Shown in pieces: positions 2,015 through 64,000 of a stretch of 64,000 nucleotides of DNA. This stretch comes from Octopus vulgaris (lineage: Eukaryota). Both the position numbers and the translations under genes were made by a program. Positions within the stretch are counted from its first letter, which is position 1. Each line of letters starts with the position of its first letter. Below the pieces are notes generated by a model. It saw only the letters and a program-made list of their open reading frames with translations, was not told where the DNA came from and searched no databases. The stretch lies in the NCBI GenBank assembly GCA_951406725.2, contig OX597815.1:12772001-12836000 (forward strand), given 5' to 3'.

Positions 2015-2065
2015 AAATGTTGCTGACGAATCATAGACAATTATGTAAGTATAATCTGCATATTT
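2015..2065 (+). ncRNA. Degenerate hammerhead-like motif
   Basis: CTGACGA (2023-2029), short stem II, GTAA in place of GAAA, GTATAA (near GTATAC palindrome), TC, weak stem I. A (TA)n tract lies about 180 bp downstream. Confidence 0.35.
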
Positions 2066-3386: not shown

Positions 3387-4560
3387 TCATGCGTCTTGAA
3401 ATGTTTGGTATACAATACCATTAAATGTCCTCAAATCCTTGAATGAACGACTGTTCTCCATTTTAGCATGATCATCTACAGCATAGTGTTTCATCCCAGT
3501 GTCGAAATCACCTTTCCTCACTTGAAAACGATAACAAGTTTGTGATTGTCTACTCTTCACAAACCTGTCTGATATCGATCCTCCCCCCGGGGAAATAGCA
3601 GTACAAATGCAACTGATGGATTCTTTGTATACTACCATCTCATCTGCCAACAATAACATCAAAGTGGCCTGCAACTTCCTCTGGCAAAATAGCAGTAATT
3701 TCTGAATCCGTTTGAAGATTCAAAGTTCGACAATGTGAATTAGAGGATTTGTTATTTCTGTCAGCGTATCGAAATCCTTTAAAGCCTCAGTTTCAATAGC
3801 TGCTCTGAAACCACATGTATGCATTGTATTGGTTCAAGTCACCCTGTATGCTTTCAAAATCTCACTGTTTAAATTTCTATACAGCTGACGATTCTCAAGT
3901 TCGTTATCTGTATCATTGAAGTGGATTCGAGCAAATTTTGGAATGTTGTCTTTAGGAAGTAGCGATGGAATCATGTGATAAAATTTTCCCTGCACCTTAA
4001 AAGTAAATCTAAATGCTGGGGCTCTGATTTCTTTGCAACCCAGAGAAGCCAATGCTAGTGCTTTGTTAAATGGACGTATATTTGCAGGAAATTGTTTCCT
4101 ATTTTTGTAACATCGAAGTATCTAAGAATATTTGGTGGAGGCGGAAGCAGAGTGACAAGTTTTACTTTCCCCTCAAAGCAACATAGAGATTTCAATTCAG
4201 CAGCCCATCTGTAAGCATCGCAATATGAACAAACACTGCCAAAGAGACTCCCTGCATTATGTGACTGTACAATAGACAGGACAGTTTGTTCTTGCAAATT
4301 ATCGAAGCTGGCATTCATTGCCAATCCTTTAAAAGAATTCTTCCTAGTTCGAAAATGCTTCCGTCTGTACTTCTGCTGTAAATATTCGGTGTCATCTTTC
4401 AGCACTCTGTTTATTGGAACTGTTGTTTCTGTTTGTATATCACTGATGTTTGGAAGGCTTCCCATTTGATACTGGTTATCAGTCGGTAGCGAAACAGTCA
4501 CAGATGGCGAAAGCTGCTTCAGTGTCTTCTTTTGAAGACCCATCACGAGATACCCTACCC
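3387..4560 (-). pseudogene. Decayed Helitron RepHel fragment
   Basis: Helitron-typical motifs in broken ORFs: CSYCDAYRW..E..LCCFEGKVKL..LPPP (zinc finger), FTFKVQGKFYHMIPSLLP..PKFARIHF.D..NELENR, and SFKDLRTFNGIVYQTFQDA. Frameshifts and a large internal deletion; interrupted upstream by a SINE array. Confidence 0.85.
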
Positions 4561-4590
4561 AGTCGGTAATGTGTAGTGGAAACAGAATCA

Positions 4591-5582
4591 TGAGCTGGCA
4601 GAAACGTTAGCACGCCGGGCGAAATGTTTAGCGGTATTTCGTCTGCCGCTCCGTTATGAGTTCAAATTTCGCCGAGGTCGAGTTTGCCTTTCATCCTTTC
4701 GGTGTCGATTAAATAAGTACCAGTTACGCACTGGGGTCGATGTAATCGACTTAATCCGTTTGTCAGTCCTTGTTTGTACTTTCTGTGTTTAGCCCCTTGT
4801 AGGTAGTAAAGAAATAGGTATTTTGTCTGCCGTTACGTTCTGAGTTCAAATTCTGTCGAGGTCGAGTTTGCCTTTCATCCTTTCGGGGTCGATTAAATAA
4901 GTACCAGTTACGCACTGGGGTCGATGTAATCGACTTAATCCTTTTTTCTGTCCTTGTTTGTCCTTTCTGTGTTTAGCACCTTGTGGGTAGTAAAGAGATA
5001 GGTATTTTGTCTGCCGCTCCGTTATGAGTTCAAATTCCGCCGAGGTCGCGTTTGCCTTTTATCCTTTCGGGGTCGATGAAATAAGTACCAGTTACGCACT
5101 GGGGTCGATGTAATCGACTTAATCCGTTTGTCTGTCCTTGTTTGTCCTCTCTGTGTTTAGCCCCTTGTGAGTAGTAAAGAAATAGGTAATGTGTAGTGGA
5201 AACAGAATCATGAGCTGGCAGAAACGTTAGCACGCCGGGCGAAATGTTTAGCGGTATTTCGTCTGCCGCTCTGTTATGAGTTCAAATTCCGCCGAGGTCG
5301 AGTTTGCCTTTCATCCTTTCAGTGTCGATTAAATAAGTACCAGTTACGCACTGGGGTCGATGTTATCGACTTAATCCGTTTGTCTGTCCTTGTTTGTCCC
5401 CTCTATGTTTAGCCCCTTGTGGGTAGTAAAGAGATAGGTATTTTGTCTGCCGTTACGTTCTGAGTTCAAATTCCGCCGAGGTCGAGTTACGCACTGGTGT
5501 CGATGTAATCGACTTAATCCTTTTTTTTCTGTCCTTGTTTGTGCTTTCTGTGTTTAGCCCTTGTGGGTAGTAAAGAAATAGG
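4591..5582 (+). mobile_element. Concatemeric array of tRNA-derived SINE family A (5 units)
   Basis: Head GAGCTGGCAGAAACGTTAGC, B-box-like GAGTTCAAATTCC, conserved GCCTTTCATCCTTTCGGGGTCGAT core, tail GTAAAGAAATAGG. Units of about 184 bp; flanking sequence is duplicated. Confidence 0.92.
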
Positions 5583-10787: not shown

Positions 10788-11219
10788 GGCGAGCTGGCAG
10801 AAACGTAAGCACGTTCTGAGTTCAAATTCCACCGAGGTCGACTTTGCCTTTCATCCTTTCGGGGTCGATAGATTAAGTACCAGTTATGCACTGGGGTCGA
10901 TGTAATCGACTTAATCCCTTTGTTTGTCCTTGTTTGTCTCCTCTATGTTTAGCCCCTTGTGGGTAGTAAAGAAATAGGCATATTCTCGACGGTGAGCTGG
11001 CAGAAACGTTAGCACGCCGGGCGAAATGCATAGCCGTATTTCGTCTGCGTTACGTTCTGAGTTTAAAATCCGCCGAGGTCGACTTTGCCTTTCATTCTTT
11101 CGAGGTCGATAAATTAAGTACCAGTTACGCACTGTGGTCGATATACTCGACTTAATACCTTTGTCTGTCCTTCTTTGTCCACTCTGTGTTTAGCCCCTTG
11201 TGGGTAGTAAAGAAATAGG
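10788..11219 (+). mobile_element. Tandem dimer of SINE family A with triplicated target site
   Basis: Two copies; (T/C)ATATTCTCGACG occurs at 10776, 10979 and 11220. Confidence 0.9.
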
Positions 11220-12343
11220 TATATTCTCGACGATATATATTTTAGGCTAAGTGGGGTGTTACACAAAAATACTATCCTAGGGATTGTTATTTCCCCCCCA
11301 AATGCCAATAAACAGATCGGAAATGTTTTCTTTCAAGGTAAATACCGCAATCGATATCGAGAACGACATCGTTTATGCAGCGTTACAAATTATCTGTAGC
11401 GGAATAGAAGTATTAAATTTAGTTTTAGAGTAGTCTACGACAAGGGAAGGGAGTAATTAATGACAGAGTTAAGCCAAACAAGTATAAAATTTGTAACTCA
11501 GGGTACTTCTGGTACAATCATCATTTTCCGTACTGTGTATATTCTAACAAATCTCAATGGTCTGGCAGGAAATTTCAATAATCTTTATAAAAGACCTAGC
11601 AGCAATTTTGGCTATAGAGAAAATATTGCTTCTAAGGTTTACACATTATTGGTCTCAATACCGCTGAAGAAATAAATTTTCTAGGAAGACTACAAGACTT
11701 ATTCAACAAAAATATCATGCGTAACACGTTTGAATTGTTGGATGGGTGGAAAACGTTAATGATATACTGCCAAAAATGCAATGCAACAGCTATGTAATCT
11801 CGACATACACTGCCGAGTAAAGTACCTTGCTTCTGTATACAACATCGATTAAATAAAATAAGCACAACACAACGAAAGCTGTCAAAATATTCAGCAAAGA
11901 ATAAACGAGTAAAAACAACATATGGCAAAGAGATCAGTAGTGTAGCAATTTGTCATAACGAAGATTAAAAACACATCTGGATAATTCATAAGTCACAGAC
12001 AATCCATTTACAGCATTCATTTAATCAGTGTATTGCAACTTCTGATAGTTAACCGATTTAACGTCGACAACCTGACTGACATAAGCTTCAGAATAATCTC
12101 CACTTGGCTTAATAAGAGGGAAAACATAATAGTGCGGATCCTATTGCAGAGCTTACTAGATCGACATTCAAGAAAACTCAGAAAGAGTTTACTGCAGTTG
12201 CAACAGTAATTATCCCGAGAAGGGAGAAAAGTCTATGAAGACGGTTAAGGCTAAATACGTAAGGTCATTAAATTTAACCTTCTACCACCGTAATCTTATT
12301 AACAATAAATTTCAGTACTAATATGAATTTTAACTTTAGTTAC

Positions 12344-17234: not shown

Positions 17235-17676
17235 ATTTGTTAAAAATGGAGATGCTAAATTTTGAAAGAATCGTTTCAAACAGAGATATTAAAACATGCA
17301 AATTCATGGTCGAATAATTAAATTAATTTGATTAAATTAAATTAATCATATATCACTGTTCTCCTCAGTGCAAGAAGTATAAACAAAAAAATTATTATTA
17401 AAGAGAACTTCATACAGGAAATAGCAGAGAAGGATTTCGGATATACATATTTATCCTTATCAAAATTACAAGGATTGCTCTCCGTAATAATAATCTTTAG
17501 TTTGTACTTCTTGCACTGAGGAGAACAGTGATATATAATCAATTCCATTTAATCAAATTAATTTAATTATTCTACCATGAATTTGCATGTTTTGTTATCA
17601 CTGTTTGAAACGATCGAATGCATGTATTAAAATCCTTTCAAATTTCAACATCTTCACTTCTCCATTTTTAACAAAT
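17235..17676. mobile_element. Fold-back element (Penelope-like inverted termini) carrying a hammerhead motif
   Basis: Inverted arms of about 175-195 bp (ATTTGTTAAAAATGGAGA ... TCTCCATTTTTAACAAAT) around a spacer of about 70 bp. Confidence 0.8.
17512..17622 (+). ncRNA. Type-I hammerhead ribozyme motif with long stem II
   Basis: TGCA-CTGAGGA-GAACAGTGATA...TATCACTGTTT-GAAA-CGATCG-AA-TGCA. The only core defect is AA instead of UH. Confidence 0.75.
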
Positions 17677-18850: not shown

Positions 18851-19045
18851 TATATATATATATATATATAATAATAAATATTAGGGAATGAATCCAAAAT
18901 TACAGGGAAAAATCAGATTTAGTATTAAATCCAATTTTATAGTAAAATATTATATAATATAATTCGAGACAAAACCACTATTTTAAAACCAAACAAGAAA
19001 AGACTTAATCAATACATAAAATTTTAATATAAATTAAATAAACCG

Positions 19046-19089
19046 CCACAACAATTGTTTCATGTCTGCTACCGACAATCTTCAGGTGG
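19046..19089 (-). ncRNA. Minimal type-I hammerhead ribozyme motif
   Basis: CCAC-CTGAAGA-T-TGTC(GGTAGCA)GACA-T-GAAA-CAATTG-TT-GTGG; core intact. Confidence 0.8.
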
Positions 19090-19144
19090 ATTTTCGATCT
19101 TCTAATCAGTATCAAATTTTGATACTGATTAGAAGATCGAAAAT

Positions 19145-19188
19145 CCATCTGAAGATTGTCGGTAGCAGACATGAAACAATTGTTGTGG
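19145..19188 (+). ncRNA. Minimal type-I hammerhead ribozyme motif
   Basis: CCAT-CTGAAGA-T-TGTC(GGTAGCA)GACA-T-GAAA-CAATTG-TT-GTGG; core intact. Confidence 0.8.
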
Positions 19189-19394
19189 CGGTTTATTTAA
19201 TTTATATTAAAATTTTATGTATTGATTAAGTCTTTTCTTGTTTGGTTTTAAAATAGTGGTTTTGTCTCGAATTATATTATATATATATATATATATATAC
19301 AAGCATGCACACACACACACATACACACATATGCATGTCTATATGTATACAGGCAATAAGAGATCAAATCATAAGAACAACAACAGTAGTACTA

Positions 19395-19610
19395 TAATAA
19401 TGATTTGAAATTATGGTAAAGGCCAGCAATTTCAGGGGTGGAGTAAATCGATTACATTGTCTCAAGTGCTTTACTGGTAGTTACTCTATAGACCCGGAAA
19501 TGATATAAGATAATGTCAACCTCGGAAGAATTTCAATTCAGAATATAGACAGACGAAATGTCACTAAGCATTTTGTCTGGCATCCTAACGATTCTGCCAC
19601 CTCACTGACT
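19395..19610 (-). mobile_element. Diverged SINE family A relative
   Basis: Reverse complement of the family A head and core (GTCAACCTCGGAAGAATTTCAATTCAGAA...TTCTGCCACCTCAC). Confidence 0.7.
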
Positions 19611-19633
19611 TAATAATAATAATAATAATATAA

Positions 19634-20490
19634 ATGAACTTGAGCAGGAACAAAATTATAATTACCAATAATTAATGAAGACAATGATATTCAGCATGGA
19701 AACATGAAAGAGAATATCAAGAAGGGGTGTTATAGGAAGGTACGAGCACGTCTGAAACTTAAGCTACATGTAATTAACAAGGTGTTAACCCATGCATATA
19801 ACAAAATATTATCTATAATATCGTTAACAGTTCCAGTTGTTACTTATAGCGTTAATGTGTTGAACTGGAATGTCAGTGAAAGAAAGAAAAGTGATAGAAA
19901 ATATGTGAACTTGTATGATGCACTATCCAAAGGAAAATGTTGTTACTTTCCCTGTGCCCAAAGATGTCGATGTTTGATCCAGGATGAACTTTCTTACAAA
20001 ACCACCACAATTGGATTGCCCAACTATCCTGTAATAACTAACAACTGTATGCTAAAACGCGTTGAAAATCACAAATCAAGTAAGAAGTTTAACTCTGTCT
20101 AGAGTGAGAACAAACATTTTGACGTTGATTTCATGCATAACACCCCCGCACAACAGTCTGAAAGAAGTGCAGCGACTGTTGTTGCTAGGAAGGTGTAATT
20201 ACTGGCAATGTAAATAGTGCATGAACTAGAGGCTTGTACGTGGGAACAGAAACCTGTGCATGACAATTATATGGCCCGTAGCAAACAAACTGATGTTGGC
20301 CTGAAGCACGCCCATCAGTGGCTAAGACGTTCAGGAGTAAAGAGAGAGCGACGGCTTTCTCTTAGCCACTCAGGATCAACGCGTATTGACCTGAACTACC
20401 TAGCCATTATGATGAAAGAGGCAATAGATTTCAATCGCGGATTCTGCAGTGATGCAATTGAAACTGTAGGCTCCTAATTCTCTGGATGAA
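19634..20490 (+). pseudogene. R4/Dong-clade non-LTR retrotransposon fragment (post-RT region)
   Basis: MKENIKKGCYRKVRARLKLKL..NKILSIISLTVPVVTYSVNVLNW..SE.KK.DRK and W.QKPVH..Y....HQWLRRSG+K are typical R4/Dong motifs. Adjoins a (TAA)n tract. Confidence 0.8.
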
Positions 20491-20499
20491 CAAAATACA

Positions 20500-21301
20500 G
20501 CTAAGCATTTTGCACGGCGTGCTAACACGTCTGCAAGCTTACCGGCTTAAAATCGAAAGGATGACAGTCAAAGTCGGCTTTCGCAGAATTTGAACTCAAA
20601 ACGTTATGTCTGACGAAATGCCGTTAACCATTTTGTCCGACGCGCTAACGCGTCTGTGAAATCGACACCATTTTAGTGATAGTAATTCTTTCAAATTTTG
20701 GTACAAGGCCAGCGGTTTTGACCCCAGTGAGCAAGTGATATATATTTTATCACCCTCGAAAGGGGTCACAGCTCAAGGAAACGGCACTAAGCTCTGCTAA
20801 TTATTCGACTAGGTGTTTCCCTTAATAATAATATTAATCCTTTGTGCTATAGGTAGAAAGCCTGAAATTTTGGGGAATGGGGCTAGTCGATTATATCCAC
20901 CTCGGTGCTTGACTCGTACATATTCTATCGATTCCGACAGGATGAAAGAAAAAGTGGACCATGGTGGATTTTGAACTCTGAACGGGTAGCCAGTCGAAAT
21001 ACCGCTAAGCACTTTGTCCAGGGTTCTAACGATTCTACCCGCTTATCGCCTTGATTGGTTTCCAATCTTGGCACAAGGCCAACAGGTACAATATAGCGGG
21101 TAGGTCGATTACATCGATCTCAGTGTCCAGCTGGTACCTATTTTATCGATCTCAGTGTCCAGCTGGTACTTATTTTATCGATCCCGAACTGATGAAAGGC
21201 GAGGCAGACTTCGGCGGAATTTGAACTCAGAACGTAAAGACGGACAAAACGCTGTTAAACATTTTCCCCGGCCTGCAAAGTGTCCTACCAGCTCACCGCC
21301 T
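20500..21301 (-). mobile_element. Cluster of old SINE family A relatives
   Basis: Repeated GGATGAAAG..AAAGT.GAC...GGA.TTTGAACTC motifs; small internal duplication at 21114-21182. Confidence 0.75.
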
Positions 21302-22449
21302 TGTATGTAACTGAAATAACAATGAATCACTTCCCACTATTGGAATAGTAATTTACCTATCGTCATACAAGGATGAAGAGATGAAATCCTAATCAGGGAA
21401 TTTGTACATGATTTGAATTCAGAGCGCAAAAACCCAGAAAGAATAATCACAAGGCTTTCTACGGATGCTCTACTCATTCTGACATTTAGTCGTCCTACAA
21501 TCGGCATATATGTGGAAATGAGACAGACACGAGCAAATCGAAATTGAAACAGGATAAAAAAAACACAATATGTGAGAAAGAGAATCGTGCGTGCAATACA
21601 TGAGTGCGTGTTATGAGACAGTAGTATTGTCATTTATTGCTGATATTTTGCTGTTGCAATAGTTTTTACAGTTCTGAAGAATGTTGTTGCAGTTTATTAT
21701 TTATTTTTTCGTTGTCGTGTAGCCTAAACTAATCTCTGTTCCTAGAGATATATGATCAATGATATTTTAGTTGTCATTACACTTACTTTTTAATCAGACG
21801 TAGTATGCTACCTCTCTACACGACCTAATATGTCTTTGTGGCAGTAGGAAGAATTATGTGTATGTTCGATTTTGTGTACGCGTGTGCGTGCATGTGTGAT
21901 TCAGAGAGTGTGTACATGGGATTCAGAGACTGTGTATGTGTGTGCGTGCATGTGGGTGTCAGAGAGATCGAAAACAAGGCAGACGGAAAGAAAGGCAACA
22001 CAAAGAAAAATCACACACAAGGCGTTTCCTGGGAAATTATAAAAACAGGAACGATATAAGATATGCGCAACTATAGTGTTGTAGTTAGTACTACTACTAC
22101 TACTACTGATAACAAGTTATTCTTATAACTGCATATATATATATATATATACTTATGCATGTACTTATGTATGAATATATGTATTTGTGCATATGTGAGT
22201 GCATGCATGTTTGCATATACGTGTGTGTACCTATACGCATATATAGTATTTTTCGAATGCTTCATCGGTTGTGCAAATGTTTCAGTTTTATTATTTTCTG
22301 TAAAAAAATTCGGAAATTATTAAAATATTCGTATGAACTGTCGGGCTTTCTTTTATATAAATTTTATTTACCTATTCACTGTGCTCCCTTCGGTATTCTG
22401 GCTAGTATTGAGTGTCAGTCCGCTCGCATATAAGCCCTGAAGAACTTCA

Positions 22450-24659: not shown

Positions 24660-27530
24660 AAACATTTCACAGTATACAATATCATGAGGTTGTTGATTGA
24701 AGATATTGTGTCTACCGAGGGTTCGTACTATTTGTCAAGTCACAAGGACCTTAGACAGACATTAATTTATTTTCAATATGCGTGCAGTTCTAAGTAATGC
24801 CGAATTTTGAAATACATCTAGATTCTAGGGTATTTTTAAAGTTTGCAGATTTTTTTTCCAGATAGGGTTAATTGAACCCAATGCTCCGATAACAAAAGCC
24901 ATAACATTTACACTTGATTCTCGTAGCTGCCATATTTTGGCGATCTCAATTCTCAGGTCTCCATATTTATCAATCATTTCTCTTTCTTTCGTGATGATAT
25001 GTTGATCTCCGAACACTACCACGTCAATTATTAAACACATATGTTAGTCCCTCCTAAAGGTTACTATATCCGGCCTTCTTGCCTTCCACTTTTCGCCCAT
25101 TGCTTTTCCGGTGTATGTTGGTACCAAGCACCCATAACTTCATATCCATAGTTACAGCATAGAAGCCAGTGGAGGTTTTGGGTTACCTTGTCGTGTCTGC
25201 GCGTGTAATGTTTCTGCGCAAGACTTTCACAAGTACTAACAACGTGAGTCACACTTTCTACCTTCTTTCCACGCATTCTGCACTTGTGAGCTATATATTA
25301 TTTTTCATTGAGTTGGCATTCAATGCCTGGTCTGGGAAGTGATGATTAGACTTTCTGTATTCTTTTTCAGGTTACCGTTGTTGAGTCACCTACATGATGC
25401 TTCTTGGTCTTTTAATTTGTTGGTTTCACAGTGGAGCTGTCCCTGTAATTCCATACGGAGTGGGGTTTCGTCTCTCTCGTTGGCGTTTCTTGATCGGAAT
25501 TCAGGAGCACTCTCAAGCCAATTTTTGTTAAATCCTTCTGTACTAGCTGAAAACTCTAGAATTTCTTGTCTACTTTTTACCAAATATTCTATCATGTTTC
25601 TTCTTTGCATTTTTGATGCACTCCCGTACGCTAATTCACACTTTTCCCCCACTTTAAAGTAATCACCACACTTTTCGAGATACCGAATTGCATCTCTATA
25701 TTTTTGATGCACATTTGCACAGTCTCAAACAGCCTCTGCATTTCAGGCTCTGATTTTGCAAACAGTTTTAAATCATCCATAAAGAGAAGGTGGTTGAGAC
25801 GATGTTCATTTTCTCTCAGCTCATAGTGAACGTTGATTTTGCGTAGGACTACAGAAAATAACAGACATGAGCAAGATCCTCCTTGGAAGAGAGCTCTTTT
25901 GATTGTTACCTCGGCAAAGTGCTAGTTGTTACAGGAGAGACGTGTTTTCCAACCAGACATGCTGTTCTAAAACAGTGCATACATGTTCTCAGCTATTCCA
26001 AACTTGTCTTTTGTTTCCAAAGTCCACTAGAGCGGCAATATGTCGTAAGCCAGGCCATGCATCAGTTTTTTTGGAAGCGTTTACAGTTCTTCATTATAAC
26101 CTTGTATATCACAAGGTCGTACTCAGTGCCCTTGGATCTTTTTCGGCAACACTTTTGTTTTACCGGCAGTATATTGTTTCCCGGTAGGAACGTATACCTT
26201 TTCCCTGCGAGGGAAGCCGTTAATAATTTCCATAGGAGGTTAAGACAAGCAATGGGTCGGTAATTGCCAACCCCAATGCCCCCTGACCGACCTTTCAGTA
26301 ACAATGTTGTTCTACCCGCTATCATTCACTCCAAAACTTCACTGCTATGTAGGCATGTCTAATTTCTACTTGAGCCAGTAGCCTTGAATTCCGTCTGATC
26401 CAGCCACTTTTCAGTTTGACAGTTTCCATACCTGTGCAATGAATTCTTCCGTTACTATACACACATGATGCTGTCGTGGAGCCTCCGGATGATGGAGTTC
26501 TGATCACACAGAATGAATCCACTCAGCACCGTGTTTTTGGGAAACCTCTTGCCCCCCAGTTGTTATTTCAAATTTGGCAGGTTTCTCCTGCTTCAGGAGG
26601 TGTATTATCTTCTATGTTTCCTCGTAGCTCCTTAAAAATATGCTTCTGGTTATTTGTGTATAACTGAGATATACGATCAGTGTAGTGCTGCACCTTTAAC
26701 GTTTTAGCCCGTACTTGTTGTTTTAGGATTTCGGGGACAATTTTGAAACATTTCTTTTCTATTTGCTACTTCGCATCAAGATGTGCCCTTGCATTTTCGT
26801 TTCCATATTCCATTGCCCTTTGGACCACTCCTCTATGCATCTCAGATCTTTAACCAGGGTTAAAATATCACATTTAATTATCCCCTTCCACCATGGCTCC
26901 TTGAGTACCTTTACTTTCCATTCTTTGTTTCCTACCAGTTCAGCTACTAAAATTGAAGTCCCCTGTTTCCGCTAGATCTTTTGTCAGAATGTATTTTAGA
27001 ATCTCATCAACTTTTGAGTCGCGCATTTCACAATGATACAGTCGAAGCTTCTTAGATTAATGGACTTGGTGTCTTTTCCTGTAATTATTGTATCCTCGAG
27101 TCTTTTCTTGAGGTATCTGTGTTCTTCAGTCATATCCTCTCCTATTTCAGTGCTTTCTACATTATATTAATTGGCCGACCTCTCCTCGCTACAATTTCAC
27201 CTTGGCTATGCATTCGCTGATATTCAGCTGCTTTAATCTCCTCGAGGTTCACACCACTACAGAAGCTTTTACTGATTGTCTGAATCCGGATCTCATTAAG
27301 AAAGCCTCTATTTAGAATTATTCTTATCTGATTCCTAAGTCTATTTCCAGTAATCTGGAATATACTCAGCTGCCTCCAAAATTCTACTTTTTCCAACAGC
27401 TTTGCGTTTGCCATTGTTATTATCGAGTAAGGCCTTTCCATGGCACTGGACCGCCTTTTGGTTCATATCAACAGACCGCTTCCGTTTGCGAGCTAGTTGC
27501 ATATTTTGACCATTACAAAGACTGTCTTGT
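24660..27530 (-). mobile_element. Decayed R4/Dong-like non-LTR retrotransposon inserted in (TAA)n
   Basis: N-terminal W...FQIT.NRL.NQIR.I...GFL; RT motifs GRTTLLLK..NYRPIACLNLLWKLLT and LNHLLFMDDLKLFA; CCHC region ESVTHVVSTCESLAQKHYTRRHDKV; RLE region CLIIDV...EMIDKY.DL..EI..IW and IGALG. (TAA)n on both sides; many stops and deletions. Confidence 0.9.
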
Positions 27531-28146: not shown

Positions 28147-28769
28147 ATTATTATTATTATTGCATATTATTATTATTTCCCAGAACCCTGGGAAACGCCA
28201 GATTTGAATGAGATTGGAACAGAAAGGAGGACCGCCAATACATGCAGGTATGGTACGATCTGAAGGAAAGCTGCTGACTCAGGAGATAAGACGTGTTCAC
28301 AGTTTTGCATGTCGGAAGAGACAACAGAATTGTTGCCGCCTAGAGCAGTGACATAACAGTGATCATTACAGTGAAAAGAGGAGAAAGAAACACAGAGAGA
28401 ATTAAATAAGTTGGTGGAAAACGTTGAAGATGTTGTATGGGAGAGCAATATAGGGACGTTTCACTGAGTGCGATAAGTTTACTTTCTTTGGAATGGAACA
28501 CGCTAATGTATATTTTTACACGTATCGTGTTAGGCAATTCTGGAGTGGGAGAGATTTTTAAACAATGTGGTGTAAAGGAAGAAGATCTGCCTGTAATGTT
28601 TAAATATAAAGGTGAATTTTCAAAACTAGAGATTTTGATTTTTAGAAACAGCTGCAGATATCTCCAATGTAAATCTTTTTTGTAAGTGTTGTGGAGCGTA
28701 TAGGGATGAAGGAGAGGATTTGGTGGGACTTAGCCAAGGGTACTCAGTGTTGAGCTGATGTAAAACGGA

Positions 28770-29047
28770 GTGTAAAGCGGACAGCGGAGTGTAAAGCGGG
28801 CAGAGAGGTGTAAAGCGGACAGCGAAGTGTAAAGCAGACAGCGAAGTGTAAAGCAGACAGCGGAGTGTAAAATGGACAGCGGAGTGTAAAGCGGACAGAG
28901 AAGTGTAAAGCGGACGGCGGAGTGTAAAATGGGACGGCGGAGTGTAAAATGGACAGAGAAGTGTAAAGCGGACAGTGTAGTGTAAAGCGGACAGCGAGGT
29001 GTAAAGCGGAGAGTTGAGTGTAAAGCGGACAGCGGAGTGTAAAGTGG
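28770..29047. repeat. 19-bp minisatellite GTGTAAAGCGGACAGCGGA, about 14-15 copies
   Basis: Directly visible tandem units without unique spacers. Confidence 0.95.
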
Positions 29048-47630: not shown

Positions 47631-48037
47631 TTTAAAGCCGAAAAGAACAACTATAGTAATATCATATACATGGATTTCTCGCTTAAACCAATTTTCAAAC
47701 TTGCAATGGTACTATCAACATATTAATCTTCTCTTCCAATGATATTATGGATTTGGACCAATGCACACAATCAACACACTACTCCATAGCTTTATACATG
47801 CAGGACATTGTGAATTCAGGAAAGAAAATGATTTCGTGTCTATCATTCTAACAAACTCTCGGCATCAGCATCGCTTTTGATCCTTTTCTTCGTTAACTTC
47901 CCATAGAAAGCAAACTCAACATCGCCTTCAGAAACAGCGACCCACAACGCTAGCTCACTCCTGTCAGACAACCAAGCGTGTGTAATCCAGAAGGAAAAAA
48001 ACAAGTGTGCAAAATCTGTAATTATCTTTATGGTATA

Positions 48038-48270
48038 CCTATTTCTTTACTACCCACAAAGGGCTAAACGCAGAGGGGACAAACAAGGACAGACAGAGGG
48101 ACTAAGTCGATTATACCGACCCCAGTACGTAACTGGTACTTAATTTATCGACCCCGAAAGGATGAAAGGCAAAGTCGACCTCGGCGGAAATTAAACTCAG
48201 AACGTAACGGCAGACGAAATACCGCTAAGCATTTCGCCCGGGTGCTAACGTTTCTGCCAGTTCACCGCCT
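48038..48270 (-). mobile_element. Full-length SINE family A monomer
   Basis: Reverse complement of the consensus; TSD TAT(C/A)TTTATGGTATAC at 48023 and 48271. Confidence 0.92.
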
Positions 48271-48273
48271 TAT

Positions 48274-50611: not shown

Positions 50612-50733
50612 AGAGCTGGCAGAATTATTAGCGCGCCGGGCGAAATGCTTAGCGGTATTTTGTCTGCCGTTACGTTGTGAGTTCAAATTCCACCGAGGTC
50701 GACTTTACCTTTCATCCTTTCGGAGTCGATAAT
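50612..50733 (+). mobile_element. 3'-truncated SINE family A
   Basis: Head and core to GTCGATAA, flanked by a TTCCTGAA duplication. Confidence 0.85.
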
Positions 50734-52835: not shown

Positions 52836-53433
52836 GGCGGCGAGCTGGCAGAATCGTTAGCGCGCCGGAAGAAATGCTTAGCGGTATTTTGTCTGCCGCT
52901 ACGTTGTGAGTTCAAATTCCGCTGAGGTCGACTTTACCTTTCATCCTTTCGGGGTCGATAAATTAAGAACCAGTTACGCACTGGGGTCGATGTAATCGAC
53001 TTAATACCTATGTCTGTCCTTGTTTGTCCTCTCTGTGTTTAGCCCCTTGTGGGTAATACAGAAATAGGTATTTCGTCTGCCGCTACGTTGTGAGTTCAAA
53101 TTCCGCTGAGGTCGACTTTACCTTTCATCCTTTCGGGGTCGATAAATTAAGTACCAGTTTCGCACTGGGGTTGATGTAATCGACTTAATCCGTGTGTCTG
53201 TCCTTGTTTGTCCCTTCTGTGTTTAGCCCCTTGTGGGTAATAAAGAAATAGGTATTTCGTCTGTCCTTACGTTCTGAGTTCAAATTCCGCCGAGGTCGAC
53301 TTTGCCTTTCATCCTTTCGGTGTCGATAAATAAAGTACCAGTTACGCACTTGGTTCGATGTAATCGATTTAATCCCTTTGTCTGTCCTTGTTTGTCCTCT
53401 CTGTGTTTAGCCCCTTGTGGGCAGTAAAAAAAT
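52836..53433 (+). mobile_element. SINE family A trimer inside a single TSD
   Basis: One full unit plus two head-less 184-bp units; TSD ATATTCAGCTG(A/G)TAT at 52821-52835 and 53434-53448. Confidence 0.93.
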
Positions 53434-56400
53434 ATATTCAGCTGGTATAGCCGTCAATCTACGTAGTCAGTTATGCAAATGTTTTATTGTAAGCACGATT
53501 TTATAGTCTCAGTTTTGAGATTCTCACCGCTTGCCTTTGTTTCTGTTCATTCACAAATTTGGTAGCTTACTTCGGAATTTTGTTGAAATATGAAGAGACG
53601 CATTCTTTTGTGTTTCAGTTTCGGACGCTTTCTCACTATTACTATATCTTTGTAACATATTTTCAACAGTAAAATCTTTGTTTTCCTTATTCATCAGTTA
53701 TGTTATCCAAATTCCTGCAAGCCTGAATTTAAATCCTATTTGAGTTGCGTTTTCTGCGTACTCAATCAGGAGAGGAATGTGTCAAGAACGGAATCATATT
53801 TCGTAATTCTTTCAACATCTCTTTGATAGCTAGCATGTAACATACAAAGTTGCTTAAATTTATGATTTGGATGATGTGGAGGCTATTCTTGGACCTCATA
53901 TCTAAGCTGTTTCATTCCCTAGTTTCGAAATAATTTTTCTTGAAAGTCTGAAAATATCTCAGGTTCTTTTATACTTTCAGTAGCATTTGTCAAAGGATAA
54001 TTCTTAATAACTTGCAACTGTCATACACCTGAATATAAATCAGGTTACGTATGTTCGGAAGATTGACTTGAAGAATGATGTCCCGTTGCATCTCAAAAAG
54101 ACTCATCCTTAGTTCGGAGAATATTTCTACATCAAATTGAAATATTCATTGTTTTATCGCACATCTATTTCTATATAACCATTGTTTGAAGTAAAATACC
54201 CATCAAGGTAATTTACCCGAAATAGAAACTACAGGAGCTACCCAGAGATATTGGAAGTTATTTTCCTGATTCCATCACAATGTCTGAAATTCCTGCTTTT
54301 CATAAATGCGTATCTAGCGGTCACAAATGTTTTGTCTTATTAAGGACTGAATTAGTCTTTTACAGCCATCGTCTCTTATCAACCTCAAACACCTGGAGCT
54401 GTTTTCAACCGCTGTACCTATATCCTTCATGGTGTTCTGGACCAATCTTTCAAACCTATTACCCAGACCAATCTTCAGCAGAAAATATCACACCATTTGA
54501 GCTGGAAAACTTTGGCAATCGGCATGATATCGCCTGTCAAATGTCTCGCGAACGAAATTTTAACATTTGCTGTTCTTTAACTGCTAAGAAATTTCACGTT
54601 TGTCCTACCCGGCCACTATAAATTCAAACAAGACGGTAGATTTTGAATTGTAGAAGAACAGGAAGATATTTGTTCCGAGTGATATTACAGCTTACCTCCT
54701 CCGAGAGGCTCACTTGAATCAAGCAATCCGTGACTGGATCAAAAACGAAAAGTGTACCATACCGTTGCTTTCTTCGTTGGAAACTTGTTACCTATTAAAA
54801 TACAATCTGGTGGTGATGTCTTAGGTTTATTGACCTTTTCAAAGAGCTAATGCCATATTTTTCCCAGGTGGTATATCCTAAGAAACTCTATTAACTTGTA
54901 TTACATAACAACTTCGAAGTAATGTAGCAGTGCGTTACATGATCAATATAATTTTACAATGCTAAATAGATGCGCATAGATAACCATAAATATTTTACAC
55001 AAAGCTGAAAGCACTAGTTGCTTCCTTAATTTATCAGTGTCACTGAGAACCAAATTTAAAGTATCTTCTTTGCAGAACACACACACAAACAAACAACTAT
55101 TTGTCTGACAAAGACACTTGGCTCGTCTACATTTTCTTCACTTTTTTTTTATATTAAGAACACCACTTGAGAATCTAGTTACGAAGATTCGCAAATAGTT
55201 TTCCTATTTACTCAAGCTGTCAAAGCAGATTAATTTCTAAAATATCCGTACAGTTTCTTCAGGGAAGCAAGTTTCCACAAATGTTCTATGGTGAACTAAT
55301 GCTTAATTATACAATGGTTTTATAATATTGCATGGACAATACATACTGTTCTTTTTTCAGTATGACTAACAACAGGTGTGCATTGCAGAATAATGGAATG
55401 TAATTTGACTTCTTTAGTGTTATCATTTGCGGCGTTATAGCACCAGCTCACCAGCTACGATCTTTAAGTAGTAATTTTGAATATCTTTTACCAAGTAGTG
55501 AACAATTACTTTAACATCATTAAACGATAAGATCTATTCATAAATGACAAAATTTTAAGAAAGTTTAGATACTAATTAAACTATAAAGAAAATTTAATTG
55601 CTATCAGAAGAACTTTTCATTTGCACAGTAGAATGACAAGTTACTTTTGCATGGCAAGAACTGTAACCAAAGCCATCAAAAGTTGCATGATTGGTCACTA
55701 ACACTGTTCTATTTGACTAGTTTTCAGCTCATTATAATCAGTTGTTTCATAAGCTGCAACTCAATAGGAATATTAAATAAAACATGAGAACACACACATC
55801 CAAATTAAATTCAACTCAATAGTACTGTCAGTGCCAAAAACACTGATCTACCAATAATTAATGAATTTCCATAAGCATTAAAATAATGCATCTTTTCATT
55901 AGTCTACTTTTCTTACAGCAAGTAGTTAGTATAAAGCCTTGAATTTCAAGTTAGGTAGTTCGCGAATAACTTTCAAGTTATTGTTGATACTCTTTCTGGC
56001 GATGGATAGCCAAAGTTTGTTTGAAGCTTAGTTGCAGCTTGGCACTGCTCTCTTCATTATATGCATCGGAGATTATGCACACTTAGAATTTAAGAGAATT
56101 TTTTTTAACAAAGTAGAAGCCAACATATTTGAAAACAAAGTTCCCTTCAGTGGATAGCGTATCTGTGACCAATACATAAAAATTCAATAAAGTGGTAACT
56201 TTCACTAATGAATAACGCCCACAACTCAACAAGAACACACAACTTATTACAGGACAATACTGACCTTACCAATTCCAGTAATCCCATTAATTTCGATACA
56301 TCCCATACACCATTCATATTCCAGCTATTTACATCTAACTTAATTGCATCACTTCTAGAACTGCTTACCTCCCTCGCATATAATCTTTTCACTTAGGCAC

Positions 56401-56680
56401 TGTTAGACCCAACACCGTTTGGAAATCGGTGTGCACTCAAAGTCAGTGACGATACCGGTATGGCTTTAATTCTCTATAATGATTCATAAAAATTATTTTT
56501 ATGCGTCATAAGTCCACCACAGATCATCTAATTGTATGTATATATCTTTGCTTTTCTTTAAAAATCCTTTATTCTTTATATCTGATGTGCATTTTCTTGG
56601 TTCCCTTTTTACTTTTCCTCTATTTATACCACGTGTAGTCTCTTTACCACCTTAGAGGGAGGAAAAGTAATTACATAGAA

Positions 56681-57368
56681 ATAGTTTCATATTTATAAAT
56701 ATTATATACTTAAATATTAACTTATTAGATGTTATCTATGGAGGTTGATCAAATGCCAATTGATCGATCTCCATAGATACCATCTACCAGTGGATTAACA
56801 CTAATAACTTTAAAAACCTATAATATACCTTTTAGTTTATAATTAGTAAAAACAATTAGCATGTCCTATAACATCATTATTACTTTAGCTAATACCAGGT
56901 AACAGCATTTATTGATACCAGCTAAATAAGTACATAAATAATTTTTAATTTATATTACTTAAATCATTATACATTATCTATAAATCTACTCGATTGATGT
57001 TAATAAGGTATGTATACTTTATCATGATTTTAGTGATTAAGCTATTTTATTCTTCCTCTATGGTGTTCTACCGTAACCTGATCATTTTATTATTTTATAA
57101 TAACCTTTTGATAAATCTAATTTTTGTACTCCTCTAAATTCATAATTATAAAATTCATATTTATAAATTCATACTTATAAAACAATCCAGGTATCTTCAC
57201 AACGTAAAATAAACTAATTAGATTATAATTTAATTAATATAGAGTTAACATGTTCTTTCGCTTCAGTACTCCCGTTTTAAATACCAGTAAAATCTAATTA
57301 ATCAATATCCATAGATACCATCGAATAAGTTAAAAACTAAGTATATAATATGTATAAATATAAACTAT
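56681..57368. repeat. AT-rich fold-back element with about 70-bp diverged inverted ends
   Basis: ATAGTTTCATATTTATAAATATTATATACTTAAATATTAACTTATTAGATGTTATCTATGGA pairs with TCCATAGATACCATCGAATAAGTTAAAAACTAAGTATATAATATGTATAAATATAAACTAT; extra local hairpin at about 56727-56787. Confidence 0.7.
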
Positions 57369-57841
57369 CTTCTTAATAATCATGTGAAAATCCTTAAATT
57401 TCAGCTTTATACAATATGGCAATATTGTTTCAAATATTTAACTATAGTACACCCTGATAAAATTTGCCCCTGTATCATTATCAATGGTGAAGTAATGGCC
57501 TGCCCCATTAAATGTCCGATTTAAGATTTCCTTCACAAAATATTTATAGTGTTTCATATTAATTTTGATAATTTTAGGACCGTACCCACTATGATTTCTG
57601 TCGACTCCCTCAACCCCCTCCCTTACATTCACTGCTCTTTATTGTTTGGCCATAGATTTTGATTTACAAATATTTGATAAACAAGTCTATAAATTAAAAC
57701 GGTCCGCAAAAAAAACAGTGACAAGCTGAATTTCTAACATGCCTTTCTTCCCGATACTTTAGTAGCTTCTAAGCAAAAGTGAAGACAGCATGTTCTGTTT
57801 TAATTTAATGTAATTCTGTCTCTATGCGGCTTATGTTGCTC

Positions 57842-57909
57842 TGCATATGAACTGATGTAATGATTGCATTGTTCAATTAAATGGAGTTGCTTGAAACGAT
57901 CGTACTGCA
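57842..57909 (+). ncRNA. Degenerate hammerhead motif
   Basis: TGCA..CTGATGT..wobble stem II..GAAA-CGATCG-TA-CTGCA; the 3' half resembles the 17512 motif. Confidence 0.55.
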
Positions 57910-58033
57910 TTAACCCTGGATATCATTGTTCCTTATTTTCATTTCATTCACCTTATTTTGAAATTGTATGGATAGTACCGTACTAAACTCTGAACTTAAG
58001 TACCCAATTCATCTGAGTTGAAATTTTTACTTT

Positions 58034-58071
<38 letters not shown>

Positions 58072-58218
58072 TTTGCAATTTAAATATGGCTAACATCTAA
58101 GGGTGGATGCTACTACTGTAGTTTGTAGCTCCAGGAGGACACCTCCTCCAGCTGACTATTCTGTGCCCAATCAGTATTTGCAAAGGGAAGTCATCCTTCC
58201 CGTCTTCAACTTATGATA

Positions 58219-58263
58219 CACACGTACTTGAGTTTCTTGGTAATGACCCGTCATCGGCATGTG
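58219..58263 (-). ncRNA. Minimal hammerhead motif
   Basis: CACATG-CCGATGA-CGGGTCATTACCAA-GAAA-CTCAAG-TA-CGTGTG; 6-bp stem I, and CTCAAG is one change from the CTCGAG palindrome. Confidence 0.65.
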
Positions 58264-58374
58264 ACAATCACAGTTGTCGATGAGAAATATATATATATAT
58301 ATTAAACAAAATACGATACAAATGTCAGGGATGTGCGTAGTTGTCAGTACATTTATAAGGAAAAAGATATAGAT

Positions 58375-58432
58375 ATACTCTTACAGATCTTTCTGGGATA
58401 TATTATGGATTTCCTTTCATAAGAAAAAATAT
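58375..58432 (-). ncRNA. Degenerate hammerhead motif
   Basis: ATATTTTTT-CTTATGA-AAGGAAAT..ATATCCCA-GAAA-GATCTG-TA-AGAGTAT. Confidence 0.5.
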
Positions 58433-58643
58433 GTGTGATTGTTTAAATGGGTATGTAGGGTATCATTGGACTTCAAAAGTCTGTCCATACTCTATCATCA
58501 GTCAACTTAGATTATTTGATTAGGAAGATTTACAAACTCACTTTCTCAGTGAAACTCAATATACCCACCATTATAAACAATACAAAATGTACATTTTCGT
58601 TTTGTTTCATAATGTGATGGAATTCTTTGATATAGCAATTGCA

Positions 58644-58737
58644 TGCGGCTGAAGAGAGATTTAAACCATCTGTTATGTCGATTATACATTGATGTAAGAA
58701 TAGGTTGTTATATAAAGCTTGAGGCACGTGTACCGCG
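58644..58737 (+). ncRNA. Hammerhead motif with very long stem II
   Basis: TGCGG-CTGAAGA-[65-nt imperfect hairpin GAGATTTA/TAAAGCTT, AACCATCTGTT/AATAGGTTGTT, ATGTCGAT/ATTGATGT]-GAGG-CACGTG-TA-CCGCG; GAAA is changed to GAGG. Confidence 0.7.
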
Positions 58738-58856
58738 ACATCCTTTGTGTTCTGTTCTTTATTTCATTTGTTACATATATCCTCTCACCTCTGCTACTAG
58801 CTGGCATATACAGGTGCTTACACTTATCAAGTATTCACCCTGGATGTATTGTATGT

Positions 58857-58936
<80 letters not shown>

Positions 58937-59091
58937 AATTAGAAAAGAACCACCGTTTAGCAATTCAACAATGAAATAACAATGATATAATCAAATTATA
59001 CCATATTGAAAAAAAATTAAATATTCGATAAAACATATACCGATAATTTGGTAAAATACAAAATAATAAAGTAAAAGAATATAATTGGGTA

Positions 59092-59176
59092 TTAGACAAC
59101 ACATGTTTCGTGGCTATTTTTTCTAACTGATAGCGTTAATCAATTCAATTTAAATATAGTTGCTCTTAACGTCTAA
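59092..59176 (-). ncRNA. Degenerate hammerhead motif
   Basis: TTAGAC-GTTAAGA-GCAACTAT...ATAGCCAC-GAAA-CATGTG-TT-GTCTAA; perfect 6-bp stem I. Confidence 0.55.
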
Positions 59177-60044
59177 GATAAAAAACAATAACATAATTAA
59201 ATAAATATATATACATATATAATCTTGTAAGAAAATATAAATATATATAAACGTACGTAATTGTACAATAAAATTCGAATAAAATTAAATAATATATCAT
59301 AAATTACAAACACGAAATATCTTAACAAATATATTCTGTTATCTAAATCGTTAAACCTGATACATAAGACTTATTATTTATAAAATTTATTTCGTTAAAA
59401 ACGTGGTTTAAATAAAACTAGAATAAATAGATATAAATATTTATTATACCTATAAAAATAATTTTAAAGTTATATAAGAAAGAATAACAAAGTATAATAT
59501 ATCATTACTAGAAAATTCAAATACAAGTAATTAAAAGAAATCATTTTAAACGAAACATATATATATATATATATACAAAGTATACATTAAGTGAAACTAA
59601 AATACTATAATTTAATCTATATATATTTATTAAGTTAAATTATTTATTTATGTAATATACATCTAAGTTAAATCTTATTCTAATTTAATAATATATACTA
59701 AAAAAAACTTCATGCTAACTTATATGCATAATGCTACTACAAACTATGACTACAATATATACTGCGAAGATGATATATTATGGAGATGTACTTGCATAGC
59801 AAGTGATTTCATCTGAGTCCGTATGCTGAAACTAAAACTATTGAAGCTGTTGCTTAGCTGTTTGGGACCAAATTGTGACTGGGAACGAGAAACAGGTTTT
59901 GTATATAATGTCATGCGCCGAGGACAGTTGGTAACGAACAGAGAAACACCGGAACACCAGGCCCCCACGTAAGTTTTTCTTTGTTTGGTCGCATGTGAAA
60001 ATATTATTTCCTTGTGAACTTTTAAACCGAAATCAAACAATAAC

Positions 60045-60600
60045 AAAAGAAAGTTGTAAATCTAGTCGAGTTCATGGTTCCTCATGAAGATAACATGGAC
60101 GCCGCTCGGTCTCGAAAGATTGATCGTTATGTAAACCTCCTCGAAGAATGTGAAGATGCAGGTTGGAAAGCGGAGTATTTTCCAATCGAAGTCGGATGTA
60201 GAGGGTTTGTTGAACACAGTGTTAGACACCTGTTGTTATCTTTAGGCCTAACTAATCGTAAAGTCAATACCACCATGACCGATATCCACACTACAGCGGA
60301 GATGGCTAGCCACTGGATTTGGTTAAAAAAGGGACGATGAGCGATGGCTTGAGAAATATTGATCTATATTTAATAACCAGTTGATCTAGCAAGTGGGACC
60401 TAATATCATGACGTGGGCTGGTGTGAATTGATGCCATCGCGAGGTAGGCCACGAAACGGGGCGCATTCTCTCCTGATGAACCATACATTTTCTGGCTTCC
60501 GTTATGCCTAGTTCTCGACTGGTAGCACTTGCATGTGCAAGTTGTTTGCAAGACATCTTGTGTGTTAGTAATGCAGTTTTTGGGACGCTGCACGCGACTA
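60045..60600 (+). mobile_element. 5'-truncated Hero/NeSL-like non-LTR retrotransposon (RLE C-terminus plus 3' UTR)
   Basis: LVEFMVPHEDNMDAARSRKIDRY..L...C...GWK....PIEVGCRGF...AEMASHWIWLK matches the restriction-like endonuclease C-terminus of Hero-type elements. Confidence 0.85.
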
Positions 60601-61946: not shown

Positions 61947-62460
61947 TTTGCACTGTACTTTATTGACGAAGATCGGCTTTGATTTGTACTGTACTTTATT
62001 GACGAAGATCGGCTTTGATTTGTACTGTACTTTATTGACGAAGATCGGCTTTGATTTGTACTGTACTTTATTGACGAAGATCGGCTTTGATTTGTACTGT
62101 ACTTTATTGACGAAGATCGGCTTTGATTTGTACTGTACTTTATTGACGAAGATCGGCTTTGATTTGTACTGTACTTTATTGACGAAGATCGGCTTTGATT
62201 TGTACTGTACTTTATTGACGAAGATCGGCTTTGATTTGTACTGTAATTTATTGACGAAGATCGGCTTTGATTTGTACTGTACTTTATTGACGAAGATCGG
62301 CTTTGATTTGTACTGTACTTTATTGACGGAGATCGGCTTTGATTTGTACTGTACTTTATTGACGAAGATCGGTTTTGATTTGTACTGTACTTTATTGACG
62401 AAGATCGGCTTTGATTTGTACTGTTCTTTATCGACGAAATTCGGCTTTGATTTGCACTGT
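61947..62460. repeat. 36-bp tandem repeat TTTGTACTGTACTTTATTGACGAAGATCGGCTTTGA, about 14 copies
   Basis: Near-identical head-to-tail units with no spacers; it explains ORFs 61889..62581, 61935..62477 and 61948..62469. Confidence 0.97.
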
Positions 62461-64000
62461 ATTTTATAAAAACCCACGGTCGGACGGGATTTGAACTCAA
62501 AACGTAAAGAGCCAGAAGAAATATTCCAAGGTTTTTTAAACGACGCTTTAATAATTCCGCCAAGCCACCGCTATTAAACAAATAGCTGTTTCATAGATCG
62601 AAGCTAGGTGAATACACCAGATGATTAGATTGACTATAGCACGTGCTTTAATCATAAAAAATGAAAACGAATTTGCATTAAGTGTGATTTGAACTCATCC
62701 ACAACATACATTGTCTAATCATTAATAACAAAATGTCTTTTCGCCGACGTTCTTCATATTCTAACAGTATTTTATTTCCTAATAATGATATATACATAGT
62801 TATTACATAATAGCTTTTCTTGAAGAATTGAAAGTTGTCACATCTAAGCGAGATTCTTAGTAACCTGACAAATGAAATATACCAACTCTGTTTTTAACAT
62901 TCAGTTTTCTCCTCCAGAAATGTATCATGGCATATGCACACTCACACTCATTTAACTACATATAATAATATATATATATATATACATTCTCATACATGTG
63001 CACACATTCTAACACACATACACATACTTTCACCTGTTGAACTAAGTGCAATTTTATTGGCGAGAATTTTTCTATCTGTTCATCTGTATGCTTGCTTTGA
63101 TTGGTGTCAAATAAACACCCTTTCGGATATTCAATCATCTCACTTTAAATACAACGCAGTTTTCGACCCGTGCCAATTTAAGCATTACATATTCACGGTC
63201 CGACCGAGCATAGTGTGTACATTATTACCAAGAGAAGTCTTGATGAAACGCTTACAGCTGCTATTATCTTTGTTTACACGTTTCCGCTAGATATCTTATT
63301 ACACTCTGTTGATGTTACTTTCATTATTCGTGCACATATTGTTTTACTCTAGAAAAATACAATCACTTAAATGTATGTACAATACTCAGGCATCCATTAA
63401 CTTTGCAATAACAGAAGGTACAAAACGCATGAATGTTCTAAATCATGAATAACATTTAATTACACACATTTGATAGGAGAGTTGACTGAACAATCACCGT
63501 AGTTACAAATATATACATTTCTTTAACCTTATTGAACACAGCAGGAACCATTGCTACATATGTAGTTCAATAAATGGCTAGCTGATGTTTCATGCAGAAT
63601 ACTCAGATTACCGCTATATCTCAAAATATTTTTCTACCAAGTATGTATAACAGTGAAGAACTCCACTTACAATACATGTCAGTAGAGGAGCATTTATAAG
63701 GAAGCCTGAAATACAATATATACGAACCACACAACAAATCATGCAACGGAGAACAAGAAGAACACACTAAAGCATGGAGCCTCCCATAGGCTAGTTATTC
63801 GAATAAAATAACAGCACTTCGGAAAGTAACACATAAAACAAAATTGTGGGAACTCAGGTCATTTGTGGCTCAGATACGATTTATTTGCAGCTACAAAAGG
63901 AATAACAACAAAGGAATTGTGAACAAACAAAACATATATTTCTATAATAGCTAATAACACTTTGTTACAATGCTCAATAAATAGAAAGGCTCCACATAGT

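Follow-up and report, generated by a model that had tools for sequence, protein, structure and literature searches.

Decayed hammerhead-bearing repeats around (TA)n tracts in Octopus vulgaris: a probable nest of Penelope-like element 3' ends

Introduction

The link between type-I hammerhead ribozymes with a palindromic stem III and Penelope-like elements (PLEs) is published (PMC4209133, PMC8557442). Cervera and de la Pena (2014) found mostly single motifs, which they ascribed to truncated PLEs, and reported many unrelated hammerhead families per genome together with opposite-strand pairs 100-700 bp apart (PMC4209133). Within the Hydra clade of PLEs, almost all families prefer (TA)n and carry a canonical hammerhead at the 3' end, and what the ribozyme does in endonuclease-positive PLEs is, by the authors' account, not clear (PMC8557442). 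For example, Hydra-1_Obim from Octopus bimaculoides has a hammerhead motif listed at 2403 of 2507 nt, and the list of Craig et al. 2021 includes hammerheads with U.U or C.A as the basal pair of helix II (PMC8557442). Hammerhead-bearing, (TA)n-targeting PLE 3' ends are already described, including in octopus. Other reports on PLEs give pLTR lengths of 181-218 bp and describe inverted junctions in head-to-head orientation (Arkhipova et al. 2013, PMC3846280), and new insertions tend to land in or beside existing copies (PMC6765202). Coral retrozyme monomers measure 220-245 nt (Cervera and de la Pena 2020, PMC7229834). The repeat annotation of O. vulgaris reports Penelope-like families, and the word "ribozyme" is absent from the accessible main text (PMC13282606). 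Among the mostly open-access papers listed for hammerheads with Penelope and Octopus, or with cephalopods, none points to the families described below or to forms with a long helix II.

Here we analyse a cluster of hammerhead-like motifs in a 64-kb stretch of O. vulgaris DNA (64,000 nt, the window), in which the original prediction had placed five hammerheads arranged around (TA)n tracts.

Results

Hammerhead motifs in the nest

The focal motifs were named M1 to M5 from left to right. The nest comprises the following features.

57824 to 57910, forward strand: M1, decayed type-I hammerhead, with a 3' trailer to about 58033
58034 to 58072: (TA)n tract, bordered by M1 (forward strand) and M2 (reverse strand) at their 3' ends
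58073 to 58285, reverse strand: M2 element, about 210 nt, with its hammerhead at 58263-58219
58288 to 58302: short (TA)7 tract between the M2 5' end and the M3 3' trailer
58304 to 58429, reverse strand: M3, doubtful hammerhead relic
58440 to 58625: moderately repeated segment or segments, seen in aligned contigs
58626 to 58860, forward strand: M4 element, about 235 nt, with its hammerhead at 58644-58737
58861 to 58936: (TA)38 tract, bordered by M4 (forward strand) and M5 (reverse strand) at their 3' ends
58937 to 59205, reverse strand: M5 element, with a decayed hammerhead at 59176-59092

The 3' half-motifs were found at all five positions originally given. Four motifs (M1, M2, M4 and M5) fit the type-I descriptor, while M3 fails it and is not palindromic, which leaves the claim of five hammerheads standing for four, possibly five. 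The predicted presence of a core mutation in every copy was confirmed, as none of the five genomic copies has an intact core (CUGANGA, GAAA, UH). A core enclosed by stems I, II and III is obtained for M2 and M4 with the letters of their families (see below), and for M1 in the register with C3 at 57830. The tail-to-tail arrangement of two pairs around TA was likewise right in its geometry, with the tracts at 58034-58072 and 58861-58936.

We scanned the region 57801-59220 under six descriptor settings with 150 dinucleotide shuffles each. When stem I had to adjoin the core and reach 4 bp, the scan gave four motifs (M1, M2, M4, M5) against a shuffle mean of 0.29, a count matched by 0/150 shuffles and by none of 45 window tiles, among which the maximum was two; under this requirement the excess over dinucleotide shuffles that the original prediction called for is present. 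The two loosest settings showed no significant excess (6 motifs vs 2.83, P=0.127; 4 vs 1.43, P=0.087), and the remaining four yielded P of 0.020, 0.007, 0.007 and 0/150. A stricter descriptor, under which helix II must close at the core, was run on 57001-60000; it retained M1, M2 and M4 (3 vs a mean of 0.20, with 0/200 shuffles reaching 3) and lost M3 and M5. Across the whole window there are three intact-core motifs, compared with none in 25 shuffles, and a loose scan returned 15 matches where 7.4 per window are expected by chance. For the class to which M1, M4 and M5 belong (perfectly pairing stem III, stem I of at least 5 bp), four matches were seen vs 0.60 expected per window, three of them within the nest.

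The Rfam models gave no match in the 64 kb at the gathering score, and the five matches at E<=10 in 56500-60500 include no hammerhead model. The same is true of the 30 matches at a pair of hammerheads with intact cores (19085/19149, described below), and because Rfam also misses this intact pair, its blank result at the nest is uninformative.

Large dispersed families of M2 and M4

In M2 (C3 at 58257, reverse strand), the core is altered once (U4C) and directly adjoins a stem I of 6 bp; two of the three pairs of its stem III form, and C.A stands at the base of helix II. In M4 (C3 at 58649, forward strand), GAGG replaces GAAA, stem I has 5 bp, the palindrome is perfect and the helix II insert measures 65 nt.

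Contigs from four of 24 listed runs, bearing three organism labels, were aligned at 80% likeness to 58076-58848 (773 nt), a span that covers M2, M3 and M4. The four runs contributed 3334, 1566, 2334 and 374 aligned contigs. No run in the list is recorded as RNA. In run X1 there was one identical contig, with a depth of 48, and the summed depth, which differs from copy number and is read here only as "many copies", ranged over 5e4-1e6 across M2 and 9e4-3.5e5 across M4. M2 and M4 are thus members of large dispersed repeat families. For M3, repetition was confined to about 58336-58390. Of the three motifs in the aligned span, M2 and M4 bear out the predicted multi-copy state.

The M4 family carries G>A at 58723 and 58724 in ~99-100% of the depth in all four runs (57, 41-43, 70 and 13 contigs per run), which restores GAAA, and, with its A>C at 58659, helix II is closed on the core side; relative to the family, the core changes of M4 are private to the window copy. 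With the letters of the M2 family, the palindrome becomes perfect, the cleavage site reads UC and helix II has 4 bp, with a predicted change from -1.6 to -10.7 kcal/mol for the dimer helix III and from -1.3 to -4.7 kcal/mol for helix II. The window copies differ from the family majority at no fewer than 7/202 positions in M2 and 9/223 in M4. The U4C position, 58256, is not among the listed variants in any of the four runs, even though depth persists in the adjoining bin; U4C thus appears to be common to the aligned M2 copies, with a possible contribution of reference bias. Of the intact family cores that had been expected, that of M4 is therefore recovered, whereas U4C persists in the aligned copies of M2. 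Natural hammerheads with U4C are known and are less active (PMC3088659). The listed stem changes among the aligned contigs are one-sided repairs rather than two-sided covariation, apart from one contig, from run X15, whose core is intact and whose helix II differs. Possibly, a U4C subfamily of M2 has been amplified.

At the 3' side, 19 contigs of run X5 exit the M4 body at 58780 into (AT)n. Beyond the 3' terminus of M2, the listed loose ends of contigs vary and are rich in AT without being plain (TA)n; contigs tend to break at microsatellites. No M2 head-to-tail joint is among the joints listed, from which the repeat at 58278-58313 was skipped. A 21-mer of M2 had 0 loci in a metagenome scan, the six metagenome loci matching a 19-mer of M4 were set aside as chance (GC-rich, 57-71%, lacking hammerhead context), and viral contigs gave 0 matches.

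M1, M3, M5 and the segment between M3 and M4

The best register of M1 has C3 at 57830, two core changes, a 6-bp stem I, a perfect 6-nt palindrome and a helix II of 56 nt (predicted -12.3 kcal/mol). The register originally proposed (core at 57852, stem at 57842) was rejected, having only one stem I pair adjoining the core; the core half at 57852 is a hairpin arm within the 56-nt helix II. M5 has C3 at 59170 on the reverse strand, two core changes and a 6-bp stem I, and its 54-nt helix II is weak (-4.1 kcal/mol) and open at the core. An alternative M5 register (59143) has no adjacent stem I and was discarded.

M3 (58423, reverse strand) passes no descriptor: one of three pairs of its palindrome forms, and its stem I is merely the pairing of T-runs. 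The bin that contains its supposed 5' core half (58423-58417) has the depth of a single copy, and M3 is thus either too decayed to align there or no hammerhead. One idea, by analogy, is that its stem III might be a Hydra-type 10-nt palindrome that has lost two bases. The segment at 58440-58625 contains an intact 5' core half (C at 58501, reverse strand) followed by a hairpin and no matching GAAA; joining this core half to the GAAA of M3 as one ribozyme was rejected, since no stem I forms. Joints seen in single contigs connect 58506-58513 with several points of the M4 body, on either strand.

Other hammerheads in the window and their (TA)n neighbours

Three further loci carry hammerhead motifs.

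2016 to 2094, forward strand: type-I hammerhead whose core is intact, with 7 bp in stem I and 46 nt in helix II; a TA tract follows 151 nt downstream
17512 to 17625, forward strand: hammerhead-like motif with an 84-nt helix II and U16 changed to A
18948 to 19286: near-perfect head-to-head palindrome with arms of ~165 nt and one mismatch

Each arm of the palindrome at 18948-19286 bears an intact-core hammerhead (C3 at 19085 on the reverse and 19149 on the forward strand), with TA at the outer ends and U.U at the helix II base of the 19149 hammerhead. It looks like a young PLE inverted insertion, belongs to a different family from the nest elements, and provides better candidates for active ribozymes than the five focal motifs. 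The motif at 17516 has a 6-nt palindrome identical to that of M1 and no (TA)5+ tract within 957 nt.

M1, M2, M4 and M5 each lie 128-161 nt upstream of a (TA)n tract. Among the 15 loose matches, the three intact-core motifs (2023 forward, 19085 reverse, 19149 forward) and the four focal ones have (TA)5+ 93-179 nt downstream, while in the other eight the nearest such tract is 364-4469 nt away. A (TA)5+ tract within 200 nt downstream is thus found in 7/7 good vs 0/8 poor matches, against a background of 10.3% of positions, a comparison whose unbiased part comes down to two intact loci because the focal motifs were partly chosen for their TA neighbours and the 19085/19149 pair represents one event.

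A self-BLAST revealed no second copy of the focal elements inside the window. The best local alignment among them, between M2 and M5 (z=3.4), consists of 32 AT-rich columns. Homology was rejected for M1 and M4, whose global alignment score is reached by 15/300 shuffles; for M5 and the motif at 2023, where the local alignment (z=5.1) is out of register and AT-rich; for M1 and the motif at 2023 (1/300 shuffles, yet 15 pairs tested); and for M1 and 17516 (62/300 shuffles). The claim that the focal motifs come from unrelated families is weakly supported in that no focal pair aligns convincingly.

Sequence setting of the nest

The window is AT-rich (GC 27-43% per 2 kb) and abundant in microsatellites, with 69 tandem-repeat rows. 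A 184-bp SINE-like repeat, presumably resembling an octopus SINE, occurs in many copies, some of them tandem. Other repeats are as follows.

4633-5582, 10811-11232, 48035-48273, 50613-50732 and 52842-53434: copies of the 184-bp SINE-like repeat
19440-21309: older copies of the 184-bp repeat
28766-29044: minisatellite, 19 bp x 14.6
61947-62467: minisatellite, 36 bp x 14.5, 97% matches

None of the 173 ORF pieces of the window represents a host gene with Pfam support. The linkage to PLE RT and GIY-YIG ORFs raised in the original prediction was not found: a Pfam search of these pieces detected neither in or near the nest, with GIY-YIG matches being zero in the window. The absence of a PLE ORF is expected if the units are short 3' ends. 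The sole RT match in the window (Pfam RVT_1, E=2.3e-9, 25634-25921, reverse strand) is located 32 kb from the nest, and we take it to be a fragment of R4/Dong LINE type. Two other stretches drew attention and have no Pfam match. A 98-aa frame at 60044-60340 (forward strand) is, we assume, like the C-terminal restriction-like endonuclease of Hero/NeSL-type non-LTR elements, and broken frames at 3387-4606 (reverse strand) presumably resemble pieces of a Helitron Rep/helicase.

Discussion

Origin of the nest

We propose, with a probability of about 0.72, that the nest consists of mutated 3' ends of Hydra/Neptune-type Penelope-like retroelements that were stacked by repeated insertion into (TA)n. 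The units are near-uniform in length (~210-240 nt, pseudo-LTR-sized), and helix II inserts of unusual length, 46-84 nt, occur in five motifs of the window. Membership in the PLEs is likely and at the same time unproven, because the parent ORF is not seen. By analogy with PLE biology, a GIY-YIG endonuclease would nick a (TA)n tract and the RT would copy the element RNA starting at the RNA 3' end. Integration of only the terminal 200-odd nt could reflect either 5' truncation or a short non-autonomous RNA unit. The TA tract would outlive the insertion and be hit again; elements would pile up because the (TA)n target survives each insertion, and a hit on the opposite strand of a surviving tract would produce the tail-to-tail pairs. 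M2 is flanked by TA on either side and has the look of an element that landed in a tract already bordered by M1 or M3. Processing of the source element's transcript would fall to the hammerhead, which would likely act as a dimer held together by the palindromic stem III. The genomic copies in the nest are predicted to be inactive, since each has core changes and the palindromes of same-strand neighbours differ. As for the predicted hotspot of ribozyme-bearing retroelements, hammerhead repeats are indeed gathered here, but a pile-up of PLEs at (TA)n is a known tendency.

The rival that survives best differs only in the template and otherwise overlaps with this explanation. It holds that the nest is built of dedicated non-autonomous units, retrozyme-like monomers or SINE-like solo pLTRs, unit-length and possibly circular as RNA, which borrow the enzyme of a PLE. 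The 5' boundaries of M2, M4, M5 and the 19149 arm are alike, only ~15-30 nt upstream of stem I, which hints at a short non-autonomous template, although the drop of depth at the 5' edge marks just where this copy ends. The sizes fit the coral retrozyme monomers (PMC7229834), dispersed monomers are described for PLE-derived retrozymes (Li et al., bioRxiv 10.64898/2026.07.22.740005), and a U4C core common to a large subfamily would suit an element carried in trans. The absence of any tandem arrangement in the window and of an M2 head-to-tail joint among those listed (with the 58278-58313 repeat skipped) argues the other way, and we consider such units unlikely. A more far-reaching suggestion, which is somewhat less doubtful in our judgement and is offered as tentative, is that the octopus harbours very large families of ~210-240-nt non-autonomous hammerhead units, starting at a fixed point shortly before the ribozyme and bearing a helix II of 46-84 nt, which are missed by Rfam and by short-spacer descriptors, are put into (TA)n by PLE enzymes, and include one family that spread despite a weakened U4C core.

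Considerably less probable is the view that the elements themselves produce the TA tracts as tails, as in microsatellite-tailed LINEs and SINEs, and do not target them, the nest arising from general repeat density. It accords with M1 and M4, where TA is found on the 3' side only, and with the commonness of (TA)n, given that a tract begins within the next 200 nt downstream for 10.3% of positions. It does not account for the TA that flanks M2 on both sides, the TA-rich remnant on the 5' side of M5 (~59206-59221) or the two tracts that are each common to two opposite elements, and the published rule for Hydra and Naiad PLEs is a preference for (TA)n.

That the motifs as a whole are chance matches in AT-rich DNA appears very improbable. 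The restoration of GAAA in nearly 100% of the M4 family and of the palindrome in the M2 family, and the excess of the M1/M4/M5 class with its concentration in the nest, outweigh the lack of a significant excess with loose descriptors, the 7.4 loose matches expected per window and the failure of M3 in the palindrome test. Taken motif by motif, chance is untenable for M2 and M4, has about even odds for M3, and is a minor possibility for M1 and M5. Finally, a functional host element, for example convergent transcript-processing ribozymes, would explain the clustering and convergent geometry only and is the least credible reading of all, given core changes in all copies (those of M4 being private relative to its family), palindromes so different that neighbours are unable to form a dimer helix, and no coding context by Pfam.

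If the nest is read as stacked PLE 3' ends, it enlarges a known class by repeat families that bear ribozymes and lack annotation. Families with a long helix II, together with a large U4C subfamily, would offer useful natural material on the need for cleavage in transposition, and the spread of a U4C family would, if true, show that self-cleavage is dispensable for spreading. The length of helix II also suggests that counts made with short-spacer descriptors are too low.

Comparison with known systems

Cephalopod Naiad PLEs share the (TA)n preference with the nest, and some Naiads are flagged "HHR_half_core"; they are said to lack canonical hammerheads and to have been long inactive in cephalopods. 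By eye, the 3' ends of Naiad_Obim and Naiad_Ovul are unlike the nest elements. As a separate observation on these 3' ends in the supplement of PMC8557442, both core halves and the pairing partners of three stems seem by eye to be present, but in an order that is nested and permuted. Of six short motifs compared with the accessible Craig supplement, five had no match and the sixth matched an unrelated nematode Naiad.

The non-LTR retrozymes resemble the nest elements in being non-coding, 200-400 nt long and PLE-related, with a type-I hammerhead and dispersed monomers. They are defined by tandem repeats and circular RNAs; tandem head-to-tail units, the retrozyme hallmark, are absent from the region.

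The nest motifs are close to the minimal PLE hammerheads in their type-I form, their stem I of 4-6 bp, the extra base after A9 and the palindromic 15.2-16.2 region, but they have a 6-nt palindrome instead of none and a far longer helix II, and all five are mutated copies. The head-to-head junctions of PMC3846280 have their counterpart in the pair at 18948-19286, outside the nest.

Among the closest systems are the Hydra-clade PLEs. The nest elements differ from these in lacking an ORF, and no sequence match to Hydra-1_Obim was seen by eye or by motif search in the accessible material. Helix II loops in the Hydra list measure 3-10 nt, whereas four window motifs have inserts of 46-65 nt and one of 84 nt. 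The unusual helix II bases of the 19149 hammerhead (U.U) and M2 (C.A), by comparison, have counterparts in that list (PMC8557442). A sense-strand type-I hammerhead ~90-210 nt from the 3' end, a palindromic stem III, a non-standard pair at the helix II base and the preference for (TA)n are features that the window elements share with the Hydra clade, whose occasional inverted 5' copy has a possible counterpart in the pair at 18948-19286.
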